Below, piece after piece: positions 49,596-51,593 of a DNA stretch of 64,000 nt (positions are counted from its first letter, which is position 1; every line of letters starts with the position of its first letter). Source of the stretch: a virus; the IMG/VR virus record IMGVR_UViG_3300033066_000693, positions 1-64,000 of that record. One strand, given 5' to 3'. Under the pieces are notes generated by a model. The model saw nothing but the letters and a program-made list of their open reading frames with translations. It was not told where the DNA came from and searched no databases. Made by a program: the position numbers and the translations under genes.

Positions 49596-50108
49596 TCATA
49601 AAGAAACGATTCCAGCTTCTACCTCTCTATGACAACGGCAACATAATAGAACACACTTGTCAAGTTCTCTTTTCATTTTCTCGTTGAAAGCTGTTCTTTT
49701 GAAATAAGATATCCCAAAGTCTTTTTGACTCCGATCCTTGTGATGAAAGTCCATAGCAGCGGTACATCTAGCATAATTACAAAGATGGCATTTCCCACCT
49801 TTGTAATCTACGCATTGTTTTTTGAGCATTCGCTGTCGTTCTGTTGATTGATGTTTTGCGCAAAGTTTGCAATAAGTTGTCTGACCAGAAGAGTCTCTTC
49901 TATTGTAAAAAGAAGAGATTGGTAATCGAAGATCGCATTTGGGACAAAGCTTGGTTCCATCGTTGCTTTTTGTTTCTAATCTAGTTGTATTATGTTGATT
50001 GAAAGGAGAACAAGATAAGCAGTATTTGCGACGATGAAGTATCCGAAGTTTACCGTCTACTATCATTCTATTCGGGATTGTATTTGAACATTTCTGGCAC
50101 GTTTTCAT
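49596..50108 (-). CDS. HNH endonuclease
   Basis: CHLCNYARC...MDFHHKDRSQKDF ... CCRCHREVE; paralog of the 19592 and 51190 ORFs. Confidence 0.6.
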   Translation of the reverse strand: MKTCQKCSNTIPNRMIVDGKLRILHRRKYCLSCSPFNQHNTTRLETKSNDGTKLCPKCDLRLPISSFYNRRDSSGQTTYCKLCAKHQSTERQRMLKKQCVDYKGGKCHLCNYARCTAAMDFHHKDRSQKDFGISYFKRTAFNEKMKRELDKCVLLCCRCHREVEAGIVSL

Positions 50109-50174
50109 TGTTGTATTCCTTATTGAGGCCTAGTCGATAAGTAATAAATACAACCCAACTGTGCCAAATCCTTT

Positions 50175-50250
50175 GTCCCCGTATCGGCCCTGCCTTCTAA
50201 GCAGGTTCACCGTAACTGGAATTTTGCAGGTTCGACTCCTGCCGGGGATA
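50175..50250 (+). tRNA. tRNA-Arg(UCU)-derived tRNA-like element lacking a recognisable D-arm
   Basis: acceptor GTCCCCG/CGGGGAT and T-arm GCAGG-TTCGACT-CCTGC match the tRNA at 51054; anticodon hairpin CCTGC-CTTCTAA-GCAGG; 20-nt extra region. Confidence 0.35.
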
Positions 50251-50252
50251 CT

Positions 50253-50295
50253 TTGCTAAGCGGCTGATATGAGAGTTCGAGTCTCTCCGGGACTA
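50253..50295 (+). tRNA. tRNA 3' fragment (loop TTGCTAA + GCGGC, T-arm GAGAG-TTCGAGT-CTCTC, CGGGACT-A) without 5' partner
   Basis: no complementary 5' acceptor strand within 150 nt. Confidence 0.25.
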
Positions 50296-50316
50296 CTTGC
50301 AGGTTTGATTATGGAA

Positions 50317-50347
50317 GGGCTTCACCAAAAAGTGAAGCCCTTTCTGC
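50317..50347 (+). terminator. rho-independent terminator GGGCTTCAC-CAAAAA-GTGAAGCCC-TTTCTGC, followed by TATAAT (50348-50353)
   Basis: 9-bp stem plus T-rich tail. Confidence 0.5.
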
Positions 50348-50377
50348 TATAATGGAGGCAAGAAAGGGCATTTATCC

Positions 50378-50797
50378 ATGAGCCAACCTCCCACAAATCT
50401 TGACGACCTGAAGAGTTTCGTAATAGCAAACTTCGAGAAACTCGATACTGGTCGGGTTGTTTTCGCAGACAACAAAGGTGAGGTAACTTGGAGCTATCCT
50501 GCTCCGGAAAAGAAGCAGGGTGGCTGTCAGCGATGCCATTCCGAAAGAGTTCTTGGTATCAATGCCAAGTGCAGCGACATGTGCAGCATTCGAATGGGAA
50601 GCAATGAGAGCGAAGGATATGCGCCTTCTGCTCCGGGTATCGGTGGTGGCGATTACATCGAAACCGATATCTGTCTTGATTGTGGACAGGTGCAGGGCAA
50701 GTTCCCTTTGAAGAAACTTGAAGAAGAGGAAGAATGGGAAGAGGAAGCAACAGCCGCATCAGAAACCGATGACGACGAAGAAGATGAGGATTACTGA
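50378..50797 (+). CDS. hypothetical protein with CxxC pairs and acidic C-terminal tail
   Basis: 139 aa. Confidence 0.4.
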   Translation: MSQPPTNLDDLKSFVIANFEKLDTGRVVFADNKGEVTWSYPAPEKKQGGCQRCHSERVLGINAKCSDMCSIRMGSNESEGYAPSAPGIGGGDYIETDICLDCGQVQGKFPLKKLEEEEEWEEEATAASETDDDEEDEDY

Positions 50798-50859
50798 ATG
50801 GAATACGGTGGGTCTACGTTTGATCGCCTACCCCGAAAGAGCCTAGCTACCCACCATTA

Positions 50860-50888
50860 GTCCCCGTAGCTCAGATGGATAGAGCAGC
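50860..50888 (+). tRNA. tRNA 5' fragment (acceptor GTCCCCG + D-arm TAGCTCAGATGGATAGAGC)
   Basis: matches the 5' end of the tRNA at 51054; runs directly into a small ORF. Confidence 0.3.
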
Positions 50889-50889
50889 A

Positions 50890-51045
50890 ATGCTGAAAGA
50901 AATCAAAAATACTCTTCTTCTTCTCTTTTTCGCTCTCCTAGGGTATGCAATAGTTGGTTGCTGGGGAGTTGCTATTTTCCCGATTGTTGGATTCATACTG
51001 TTAGGATTCATAAAAGGAACCATCAAGGGATTGTCGCGCCGTTAG
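50890..51045 (+). CDS. small hydrophobic peptide (51 aa, one TM) fused downstream of the tRNA 5' fragment
   Basis: MLKEIKNTLLLLFFALLGYAIVGCWGVAIFPIVGFILLGF...; not in the ORF track (<60 aa). Confidence 0.3.
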   Translation: MLKEIKNTLLLLFFALLGYAIVGCWGVAIFPIVGFILLGFIKGTIKGLSRR

Positions 51046-51053
51046 TTCTAAAC

Positions 51054-51127
51054 GTCCCCATAGCTCAACTGGACAGAGCTTCAGATTTCTAATCTGGCGG
51101 TTGCAGGTTCGAGTCCTGCTGGGGATA
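51054..51127 (+). tRNA. tRNA-Arg (anticodon UCU)
   Basis: acceptor GTCCCCA/TGGGGAT, D-arm GCTCAACTGGACAGAGC, anticodon stem TCAGA/TCTGG with loop T-T-TCT-A-A, T-arm GCAGG-TTCGAGT-CCTGC. Confidence 0.7.
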
Positions 51128-51189
51128 TTTTAGCTTAGAAGAAGGATTTCTAAGCGTTTCATTGGAATTGCCTCTTAGGAGGTACACCA

Positions 51190-51543
51190 ATGATAAAATG
51201 CACGCAATGTTTGATCGAAAAAGAACCAACTGAATTTTACGAGAAACGGAAGGGAAGAAAACAGAGTTTTTGCAAAAAATGCTTTAGTAAATACTGTATC
51301 CAGCGTTGGATCAACAGGAAGATTGAGGCAATAAAATACAAAGGCGGATGCTGCATAAAATGCGGCTACAACAAGAACTATGCAGTCCTTCAATTTCATC
51401 ATCGCGATTCGTCTACTAAGGACTTCGAGTGGATAAAACTCAGACTAAGGAAATGGTCAACCGTTCTAAAGGAACTAGATAAATGCGATCTTTTATGCAG
51501 CAATTGTCATACCGAGATTCACAATCCTGAAGCAGCCTTCTAA
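51190..51543 (+). CDS. HNH endonuclease
   Basis: GGCCIKCGY ... LQFHHRDSSTKDF ... CSNCHTEIH; RBS AGGAGG; flanked by direct repeat TTCTAAGCG. Confidence 0.6.
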   Translation: MIKCTQCLIEKEPTEFYEKRKGRKQSFCKKCFSKYCIQRWINRKIEAIKYKGGCCIKCGYNKNYAVLQFHHRDSSTKDFEWIKLRLRKWSTVLKELDKCDLLCSNCHTEIHNPEAAF

Positions 51544-51578
51544 GCGGCAGGTCGCTGGTTCGAGCCCAGCCGGGGATA
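51537..51578 (+). tRNA. tRNA-Arg(UCU)-like 3' two-thirds (anticodon loop CTTCTAA onward, T-arm GCTGG-TTCGAGC-CCAGC, CGGGGAT-A)
   Basis: overlaps the HNH stop; no 5' acceptor or D-arm. Confidence 0.3.
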
Positions 51579-51593
51579 TTAAGGAAGTCAACA

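Follow-up and report, generated by a model that had tools for sequence, protein, structure and literature searches.

In a jumbo phage, each of two tRNA genes for arginine has very likely been cut in two by a selfish cassette built around the gene of an HNH endonuclease, and each cassette brings a whole tRNA(UCU) of its own, which in one case apparently belongs to a class of phage tRNAs with a permuted core; of the explanations considered, this one fits the locus best. The locus lies at approximately 49,568-51,578 of the window, i.e. of the whole stretch of 64,000 nucleotides (nt) analyzed here, which represents positions 1-64,000 of the IMG/VR virus record IMGVR_UViG_3300033066_000693. Comparison contigs and phage records are labeled with L-numbers (L005, L006, L108, etc.). 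The two endonucleases are termed HNH170 and HNH117, and the source was recognized as a jumbo phage because an identical copy of the HNH117 protein is present on a contig of 257,887 bp. While invasion of tRNA genes by homing endonucleases is of a known kind, the core-permuted tRNA class is apparently undescribed.

A sequence-only reading of the same DNA had seen a single tRNA-Arg(UCU) gene accompanied by four related pieces, bracketed by two HNH paralogs, and explained it by repeated endonuclease-mediated breakage of that gene. All the listed pieces were found, exactly or within a few bases of where it had placed them, but they belong instead to a pair of standard tRNA-Arg(UCU) genes; a single split at nt 28/29 interrupts each of them, and both inserts contain a whole tRNA of their own. 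Breakage of tRNA-Arg genes by the HNH genes was borne out by the presence/absence alleles of the first site, in contrast to its repetition at one gene, since the pattern is that of one insertion per gene. In the region 49300-52000 both ARAGORN and a default Rfam run gave a single tRNA, the complete tRNA-Arg(UCU) at 51054-51127 that had already been recognized (65.8 bits on RF00005), and the Rfam covariance model found no intact standard tRNAs at the positions of the fragments; with relaxed filters, a weak match of 16.9 bits to the Rfam tRNA model was obtained at 51503-51578.

Site 1, at which tRNA-Arg(UCU) no. 1 is interrupted by the HNH170 cassette, provides a natural before-and-after record of what we take for homing-endonuclease invasion, with three alleles, at least two of them with an insertion, in one phage population. 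Look-ups of exact proteins produced more than 12 contigs of the same phage from related metagenomes. Five of them (L006, L008, L011, L012 and L017) carry no HNH170 and, according to the alignment, have 165 bp between the genes of the 67-aa and 139-aa proteins, with an intact 75-nt tRNA-Arg(UCU) called by ARAGORN inside this gap (9845-9919 in L006). In the window allele, present also in L007, an insert of ~660 bp (49596-50255) follows nt 28 of the tRNA and consists of HNH170 on the minus strand, a spacer and element B. The 5' 28 nt of the tRNA, comprising the acceptor strand, the D arm and nt 26-28 (49568-49595, plus strand), are identical at 28/28 positions to the start of the intact tRNA of the HNH-less sister contigs; this piece had been missed by the sequence-only reading. 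Its nt 28 is abutted by the stop of the gene for HNH170, a free-standing HNH endonuclease of 170 aa (49596-50108, minus strand). A spacer of 66 nt (50109-50174), which presumably holds the HNH170 promoter and ribosome-binding site, separates the divergent start of this gene from element B, the core-permuted tRNA(UCU) at 50175-50250 (plus strand). It is followed by 5 nt of junction filler (CTTTG, 50251-50255) which, by comparison with the intact and L005 alleles, stand in place of nt 29-34 (CGTCTT) of the tRNA, and by its 3' 40 nt from nt 35 to the discriminator (50256-50295, plus strand), identical at 40/40 positions to the intact allele. The latter piece had been listed as an orphan 3' fragment at 50253-50295; it is present, with the tRNA-derived part starting at 50256, but is not an orphan, its 5' partner being the piece at 49568-49595.

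The third allele, found in L005 and L026, has the same left junction as the window allele and a precise right junction (...TTTTTA|CGTCTTCTAAGCGGC). Its HNH170 gene is intact and 91% identical to the window copy (45/513 nt different); the suspicion that it is broken in L005 was dismissed, since the gene is intact although called as two short open reading frames (ORFs). Between the two alleles 42 codons differ, 35 of them synonymously and 7 non-synonymously, indicating that HNH170 is under purifying selection. In the comparison of positions 49596-50250 of the window with 7973-8627 of L005, the differences were confined to the HNH170 gene, mostly at third codon positions, with 0 in the backbone; the 66-nt spacer had 0/66 differences and the spacer together with element B 1/142. 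An additional ORF of 363 aa (8719-9810 of L005), for which no Pfam family matched, and a terminator-like hairpin separate the permuted tRNA of this allele from the tRNA 3' part. A similar arrangement is present on L031, a viral contig of 183 kb, where a reversed HNH170 homologue and a permuted tRNA are flanked by a tRNA 5' half on one side and, on the other, by a 3' part that has decayed but whose acceptor strand matches.

At site 2, tRNA-Arg(UCU) no. 2 is split by the HNH117 cassette. The 5' 29 nt of this tRNA (50860-50888, plus strand) end with ...GAGC-A-GC| at standard nt 28, the same breakpoint as at site 1, and the 3' part, including the anticodon stem-loop, variable loop, T arm, acceptor strand and discriminator, was located at 51534-51578 (plus strand). 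The acceptor strands GTCCCCG and CGGGGAT (51572-51578) pair 7/7, as compared to GTCCCCA/TGGGGAT in the complete tRNA, and the two pieces joined in silico form a 74-nt cloverleaf recognized by ARAGORN as tRNA-Arg(UCU), whose anticodon stem contains one A.G mismatch. An intact tRNA of the same type is present in another phage (L107). Because the site-1 pieces are fully identical to the intact sister tRNA and the site-2 join folds as a tRNA, the pieces are not chance matches. In the cassette itself (50889-51533), a small ORF and the complete tRNA-Arg(UCU) precede a pair of hairpins and HNH117. As had been noticed before, the 5' half runs into a hydrophobic ORF of 51 codons (50890-51045, plus strand), whose ATG is one base past the tRNA sequence and whose product may be a small membrane peptide, and the tRNA 3' two-thirds (51537-51578) overlap the stop of an HNH gene. 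The passenger tRNA, designated 'A' (51054-51127, plus strand), has the anticodon stem UCAGA/UCUGG. The gene of HNH117, an HNH endonuclease of 117 aa (51190-51543, plus strand), extends with its last codons and the TAA stop into the anticodon stem-loop of the split tRNA. The HNH117 protein is identical in 11/11 sister contigs; its absence from some of them turned out to be only a gene-caller difference, the DNA being identical.

Composites of the same kind were found upstream of an AspRS-like gene in three related jumbo phages (L108, L111 and L113), whose HNH117 homologues are 64-70% identical. Each has a tRNA 5' half, then a complete tRNA-Arg(UCU), a pair of hairpins and the HNH gene; in L108 and L111 a tRNA 3' part closes the arrangement. 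In L108 there are also the small hydrophobic ORF, conserved at the protein level (MLNEVKNVLLLLFFALVGYAVAGCWGVAIFPIVGF...), and an extra ORF of 87 aa; the 51-codon ORF is absent from L111 and L113. In the phages that have both halves, the acceptor strands fit each other (GTCCTCG/CGAGGAT in L108, GTCCTCG/CGAGGAC in L111), and the 3' part of tRNA no. 2 is 92.9% identical over 42 nt to its counterpart in L108 (3630-3671) and 90% identical over 30 nt to that in L111. The junctions vary across the composites, from ~nt 23 to nt 28 on the 5' side (~nt 23, 24, 27 and 28) and from nt 29 to nt 36 on the 3' side. L113 contains two tRNA 5' halves, and no 3' part was found in it. These halves are arranged in tandem (2582-2610 and 2829-2856), the first of them directly abutting the ATG of a 70-aa ORF (GAGCAGC|ATG), comparable to GAGCAGCA|ATG in the window. 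ORFs starting right after a tRNA 5' half seem to recur and perhaps use the D-arm sequence GGATAGAG as a ribosome-binding site.

It is highly improbable that the fragments were left behind when a tRNA array underwent tandem duplication, slippage and decay, or by an integrase-type insertion, with the HNH genes as bystanders favoring tRNA-rich regions. Fragments of tRNA genes left by integrating elements are common in prokaryotes (PMC9897764), segmental amplification driven by the T4 enzyme SegB indicates that tRNA regions rearrange readily (PMC13096335), and most of the HNH homologues are located beside tRNAs, not inside them. However, the indel at site 1 is exactly the HNH cassette with the HNH stop flush with nt 28, and a break at or close to nt 27/28 is common to the two tRNA genes here and to further tRNAs of three other phages. 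Moreover, both HNH genes are intact, HNH170 being under purifying selection, and no integrase or recombinase domain was detected in the scanned window ORFs around the locus or in the 363-aa ORF of L005.

We also give very little credence to the possibility that the split halves are functional 'genes in pieces', reassembled as RNA either by annealing of the acceptor stems or by cutting and ligation with a phage RNA ligase, in which case the inserts would behave like giant introns. This would agree with the recognizable halves and complementary acceptor strands in phages whose HNH proteins are only 64-70% identical, with the compensatory differences C5-G68 versus U5-A68 and T stem GCUGG/CCAGC versus ACUGG/CCAGU, and with an RNA ligase encoded near the locus in related phages; in phage Aeh1, a ribonucleotide reductase gene split by a homing-endonuclease gene reportedly still works. 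Nevertheless, matching halves are equally expected from separate invasion of each phage's own tRNA allele. Neither the Intron_gpI nor the group II intron models had a match in 49300-52000 at E ≤ 10, and the inserts hold a complete tRNA, terminator-like hairpins and protein genes. The variability of both junctions, the loss of target bases, the two 5' halves with no 3' part in L113 and the visibly decayed 3' part in L031 also speak against reassembly, and the coexistence of the intact and split alleles at site 1 indicates that the split is recent.

Both HNH paralogs, which share 32% identity, matched phrog_2255 ('HNH endonuclease') in the PHROG search (E-values of 2.5e-42 for HNH170 and 5.9e-30 for HNH117), while neither had a match above the cut-off in Pfam-A. 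The family has invariant columns FHH..D and ELDKC.L.C..CH, and the Cys/His motifs are common to HNH170 and HNH117. The homologues numbered 137 for HNH170 and 91 for HNH117. More than 563 relatives were found in IMG/VR; of the best 80, 53 lie no more than 200 nt from a tRNA, which in 22 of these 53 is tRNA-Arg(UCU), and all four HNH170 homologues inspected by hand (4/4) adjoin tRNA-Arg genes in phage tRNA clusters. Near an HNH homologue in L054/L055, a tRNA-Arg(UCU) of 83 nt with a long variable arm (class-II-like) was observed at 2786-2868 on the minus strand.

The insertion of the cassettes can be pictured as follows. In a co-infecting genome that has no cassette, the HNH nuclease would cut the tRNA-Arg(UCU) gene near nt 28-35, the target being the anticodon stem-loop GCCGY-CUUCUAA-GCGGC, a specificity suggested by the shared breakpoints and the stem-loop. 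Repair of the break would copy the cassette in, with the loss of 0-7 target bases. Since each cassette supplies a whole tRNA(UCU) with a different anticodon stem, an AGA-decoding tRNA would be kept, the carried tRNAs escaping the cut and the split genes being dead. The reading that GCCGY-CTTCTAA-GCGGC is cut and the carried tRNA spared is proposed because the 3' anticodon-stem strand is GCGGC in every split 3' part found (sites 1 and 2 of the window, L108 and L111), while the passenger tRNAs all differ there. A spare tRNA in each cassette suggests a drive-plus-rescue logic, which could explain the frequent neighborhood of tRNA-Arg(UCU) and HNH genes.

The closest parallels are the T4 SegB and the T5 F-TflI/II/IV enzymes, likewise encoded by selfish nuclease genes among phage tRNA genes; they recognize the DNA of tRNA genes and drive the inheritance of themselves and of the flanking tRNAs. 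SegB is a GIY-YIG enzyme encoded between tRNA genes that recognizes a T-arm motif of many tRNAs, while the T5 enzymes belong to the HNH type (PMC2330249). A statistical association with tRNAs across phages has been reported for the SegB homologues, and SegB causes tRNA segments to be amplified (PMC13096335). In contrast to SegB, HNH170 and HNH117 are HNH enzymes of phrog_2255, associated mainly with tRNA-Arg(UCU) and located inside the target gene at nt 28/29, and their cassettes, known here from sequence, leave two half-genes and carry a whole replacement tRNA. Insertion in the anticodon region also resembles the group I introns with homing endonucleases in the anticodon loops of bacterial tRNAs, such elements often encoding HNH proteins. 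Unlike those, the inserts match no intron model, one HNH gene is on the opposite strand, a complete tRNA and ORFs are inside and target bases are missing, because of which the interrupted tRNA is most likely dead rather than spliced.

The passenger of the HNH170 cassette, element B, appears to be not a scar but a member of a large conserved class of phage tRNAs with a reordered core. As the sequence-only reading had it, a D-arm-less element exists at 50175-50250, but its origin as a derivative of the complete tRNA gave way to membership in a distinct widespread class, in which a D-stem-like helix and a D-loop-like segment are retained but differently ordered; the suggestion that it could act as a tRNA-like RNA gained strong support from comparative data (covariation and the bases at position 20). 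ARAGORN made no call for element B, and on RF00005 it scored 35.1 bits with relaxed filters at a gathering threshold of 29 bits, being absent from the default gathering run on the whole window. In the RF00005 alignment its D arm is deleted (4 nt replacing 15) and an insertion of 18 nt follows the anticodon arm; a standard D arm, i.e. a 10-13/22-25 stem between nt 9 and nt 26, was not found in it. The order of its parts is acceptor, U8 A9, UCGG, N, anticodon arm, 4 nt, CCGU, the D-loop-like AACUGGAAU, T arm and acceptor. Element B and split tRNA no. 2 have the same acceptor sequence, and the T arm is common to element B and the complete tRNA (3/33 nt differ from the latter), suggesting that gene conversion has taken place between Arg tRNA genes within this phage.

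In 107/113 extracted elements of the class, the first 7 nt formed 7/7 acceptor pairs with the 7 nt after the T arm, and many elements end in CCA. In 74 distinct sequences, 99.1% of the cells were in standard pairs and 17/17 pairs of the acceptor, anticodon and T stems changed on both sides, with a covariation score of 0.80 in comparison with 0.20 for shuffled and 0.11-0.16 for slid controls. A covariance model built from these 74 sequences (R1) gave element B 86.7 bits, while standard tRNAs reached at most 32 bits. The distinctive feature of the class is a short helix that encloses the anticodon arm and is formed by nt 11-13 (after U8 A9 N10) and three nt past this arm. Its bases were fixed in the first search pattern, and the scan was therefore rerun with a nt 12 other than G and a free partner: 71/73 matches were real elements, and the partner triplet was fully complementary in 56/57 distinct sequences, distributed over seven new triplet combinations (CCC/GGG 21, CUC/GAG 15, CAC/GUG 11, CCU/AGG 4, CAG/CUG 3, CUG/CAG 1 and CAU/AUG 1). 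An alignment of 90 sequences (A7) had 97.3% of the cells paired, 20/20 pairs changing on both sides, a covariation score of 0.909 (0.22 shuffled, at most 0.18 slid) and, for the pair 12-41, CG in 34, GC in 20, AU in 18 and UA in 18 sequences with 0 unpaired; the alignment had been fitted to the model structure, a bias of which the 74-sequence analysis and the scan with nt 12 other than G are free.

The helix is followed by an invariant U-A-A, 0-2 nt, GG, then 2-8 nt and the T arm, and the U-A-A..GG segment corresponds to a D-loop sequence (A14 ... G18 G19). The class can thus be described by the order acceptor - U8 A9 - D-stem 3'-like strand - N26 - anticodon arm - 3-5 nt - D-stem 5'-like strand - D loop - T arm. 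By comparison with the standard tRNA, the block of nt 10-21 (D-stem 5' strand and D loop) would have moved behind the block of nt 22-48 (D-stem 3' strand, nt 26, anticodon arm and variable nt). By textbook tRNA geometry, nt 10-13 of a standard tRNA occupy helical positions that continue the strand 39-44, and joining nt 44 to nt 10 would therefore give one continuous hairpin. The remaining two new links, 9 to 22 and 21 to 49, would join nucleotides that are neighbors in the core.

The anticodons of the 90 distinct members, a sampling biased to UCU, were those of arginine (UCU 76, CCU 4, ACG 3 and UCG 1) and isoleucine (UAU 4 and GAU 2). The base after the D-loop-like GG was A in 84/84 Arg and U in 6/6 Ile members; at position 20 of the standard tRNAs from the same loci, A was present in 128/159 Arg and U in 72/95 Ile tRNAs. 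In bacteria, A20 is the main element recognized by ArgRS and U20 belongs to the Ile identity set (PMC9976931). The class also keeps the 7-nt anticodon loop, U33, purine 37, the GTTCRA T loop, the A/G or A discriminator and the 7-bp acceptor stem. The RNAs of the class most likely adopt the usual L shape, and their charging would be the task of ArgRS (of IleRS in the case of Ile members); element B would be processed, charged with arginine and read AGA.

The layout of element B was found in at least 180 viral contigs and 18 cultured-phage records. The search started from metagenome loci of HNH117 relatives, screened for a UCU anticodon loop and T arm outside the called tRNAs, which gave two elements of this layout. 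An exact 31-mer of element B had no match in IMG/VR, and the class emerged only with a degenerate pattern of 20 fixed bases (TATCGG-N6-CTTCTAA-N6-10-ACCGTAA). This pattern matched 110 IMG/VR contigs; in 596 Gb of bacterial and archaeal genomes it had 15 matches, including 11 real elements and 4 chance ones. The R1 model found further members in loci chosen without the pattern. The 18 cultured-phage records, obtained by BLAST, include the Pseudomonas phages PAK_P2, JG003, phiPsa397, ventosus and others, Stenotrophomonas phage SOVA965, Limnohabitans phage DC31 and Streptomyces phages Enygma and Francob, and in 18/18 of them no annotated feature underlies the match. In PAK_P2 (at about 89782-89856 of NC_022967) a gap of 17 nt separates the element from an HNH gene downstream, in SOVA965 (38979-39053 of PP079418) it begins 3 nt past an HNH homing-endonuclease gene within a tRNA cluster, and in phiPsa397 it likewise adjoins an HNH gene, so that in these cultured phages the class is open to experiment.

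Another tRNA was present within 300 nt of 85/163 elements, while a standard tRNA-Arg(UCU) occurred in the same locus in only 2/163 cases, indicating that the element appears to fill that slot. ARAGORN called a single one of the 163 elements and missed 162. At 1178-1539 of L345 (minus strand), three core-permuted tRNAs with the anticodons UCU, CCU and ACG stand in tandem, representing an arginine isoacceptor set in which all members are rewired. The small RNAs of phage PAK_P3 were dropped as evidence of expression, since no B-type element is present at those sites. One of them, annotated as sRNA2 (L441, KC862299, 1845-1978) and reported to be abundant late in infection (PMC10914365), has a GGTTCGATTCC T-loop-like motif followed by ACACAGCC-CCAA, with a complementary GCTGTGT ~120 nt upstream and a large insert between, and may be another non-standard tRNA-like RNA.

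Taken as a whole, element B and its more than 180 relatives may be working, aminoacylated Arg/Ile tRNAs with a rewired core, i.e. a natural non-circular permutation, which in this phage travels with the HNH gene as a cleavage-immune substitute for the tRNA-Arg gene that the latter destroys; we hold this tentatively and put its chances a little short of even. An unlikely alternative is that the class consists of structured tRNA-like RNAs that do not decode but act as bait for host defence nucleases that attack tRNAs, regulate phage enzymes or are acted on by them, or provide processing signals in tRNA-cluster transcripts. In the window phage and in L020, the permuted tRNA already has a standard tRNA-Arg(UCU) beside it, and both tRNA-cleaving defence systems and tRNA-based phage counter-measures are documented (PMC13096335; discussion in PMC12916289). 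Such a role is opposed by the conservation of a canonical 7-nt anticodon loop with U33 and purine 37, exclusively Arg or Ile anticodons, the isotype-matched bases at position 20, the A/G or A discriminators and a 7-bp acceptor stem often with an encoded CCA. Besides, 161/163 loci have no standard tRNA-Arg(UCU), although this is the commonest tRNA beside related HNH genes.

The members of the class resemble the D-armless mitochondrial tRNAs, such as metazoan mitochondrial tRNA-Ser(AGY), in that no hairpin is present between the acceptor and anticodon stems and standard finders struggle with them. They differ in keeping U8 A9, the covarying D-stem-like helix of 3 bp and UAA..GGA/GGU after the anticodon arm, so that the order is changed and nothing is lost, and in occurring in phages of bacteria instead of organelles. 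With the permuted tRNA genes of Cyanidioschyzon merolae and the split ones of Nanoarchaeum equitans the class has in common that the order or continuity of segments differs from the mature cloverleaf. In both of those cases RNA processing restores a standard tRNA (PMC10085705). In contrast to circularly permuted genes, the ends in the present class are normal acceptor ends and the rearrangement is internal, which would make the mature RNA itself non-standard in connectivity. Non-circular permutations were unknown in natural RNAs before the ribozyme examples published in 2023 (PMC10085705), and no permuted, relocated-D-loop or otherwise atypical phage tRNA of this sort was found in the literature, with incomplete coverage of subscription journals; the novelty of the class is therefore provisional. 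The cloverleaf is among the most conserved RNA architectures, and a class with all of its modules reordered would, if true, show that the L shape can be reached by a different backbone connectivity. A real class would also mean a blind spot of tRNA annotation, as illustrated by the single ARAGORN call and by the unannotated matches in cultured phages, and phage tRNA repertoires would have to be re-estimated as regards the rare codons AGA and AUA.

Several observations weigh against the picture of invasive cassettes with immune passenger tRNAs. The window allele of site 1 has lost 6 target bases and contains 5 unexplained ones, so that it does not look like the outcome of clean homing. The two insertion alleles diverge in the HNH170 coding sequence only (45/513 nt, compared to 1/142 in the spacer plus element B), and no single simple history fits this, the alternatives being recombinational exchange of the coding sequence and strong constraint on the flank. 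This mosaic is the only hint of co-conversion-type inheritance at site 1. At site 2, the surrounding 863 nt are identical in 11/11 sister contigs, and an empty allele was not found. Most HNH relatives adjoin an intact tRNA with no fragments seen, and insertion within a gene is the exception. No HNH homologue was present nearby at 96/112 permuted-tRNA loci; the class is therefore independent of the nuclease, an obligate link between the two is ruled out, and permuted tRNAs and HNH genes meet since both live in tRNA clusters. The 'immune replacement' idea thereby rests on few loci. Finally, the insertion alleles, junctions, family assignments, association counts, covariation and retained identity nucleotides are direct observations; the cleavage specificity of the enzymes, the immunity of the passengers and the expression, charging and decoding of element B are inferred, and its L-shaped fold, although most likely, was reasoned from connectivity.

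Two conserved hairpins are situated between the complete tRNA and HNH117. The sequence-only reading had described this gene as flanked on both sides by TTCTAAGCG, an anticodon-loop sequence. The copies are indeed there, at 51148-51156 and 51538-51546 (3 copies in the window versus 0.8 expected), but the left one is an arm of a hairpin that is conserved upstream of the HNH117 homologues in three other phages, which rules out a target-site duplication. This hairpin 1 (..UAGAAG-AAGGA-UUUCUAAG..; 51133-51155, plus strand), with the left copy in its 3' arm (z = -2.99 for 51128-51190), has a stem invariant across the four phages, whose HNH proteins are only 64-70% identical, and could serve as a target-resembling operator, a processing site or a tRNA terminator. 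Hairpin 2 (51169-51184, plus strand) has one compensatory pair in the consensus fold of the four phages and sequesters the GGAGG ribosome-binding site of HNH117. Hairpins limiting translation have likewise been proposed for SegB and the T5 enzymes (PMC2330249). A scan for the hairpin 14-mer AGGATTTCTAAGCG was discarded, since it gave 119 chance matches, none of which adjoins an HNH117-type gene, with one weak HNH-like tblastn match more than 8 kb away.

Among sequenced phages no close relative of this phage was found, the sole match being the tRNA itself. Nearly all genes of the window are located on the plus strand. An altered genetic code was dropped from consideration, since ORF coverage already reaches 91% with standard stop codons; despite this, a tRNA with a CUA anticodon of the amber-suppressor type (labeled 'Pyl' by ARAGORN; 55 bits with Rfam) is present at 24364-24438 (plus strand). 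Four tRNA-Glu genes in tandem (UUC, CUC, CUC and UUC; 47905-48244, plus strand) directly precede a 287-aa ORF (48493-49356, plus strand) that consists of the GluRS/GlnRS catalytic domain only (PF00749, E 3e-63) and may encode a GluQRS-like enzyme paired with its own tRNA-Glu genes. A gene for a protein with Ro60/TROVE plus vWA domains (PF05731, PF25045) was detected at 60219-61913 (plus strand), with no Y-RNA family above the Rfam threshold in the window, and in the strain contigs HisRS-like, AspRS-like, NAMPT, PRPP-synthetase and HD/Clp_N genes are located near it. The neighboring 139-aa and 111-aa proteins had distant relatives or none in IMG/VR, with no tRNA context; a viral contig with a distant homologue of the former (L001) carries a tmRNA with the tag ANDNNVLALAA at 8947-9331.

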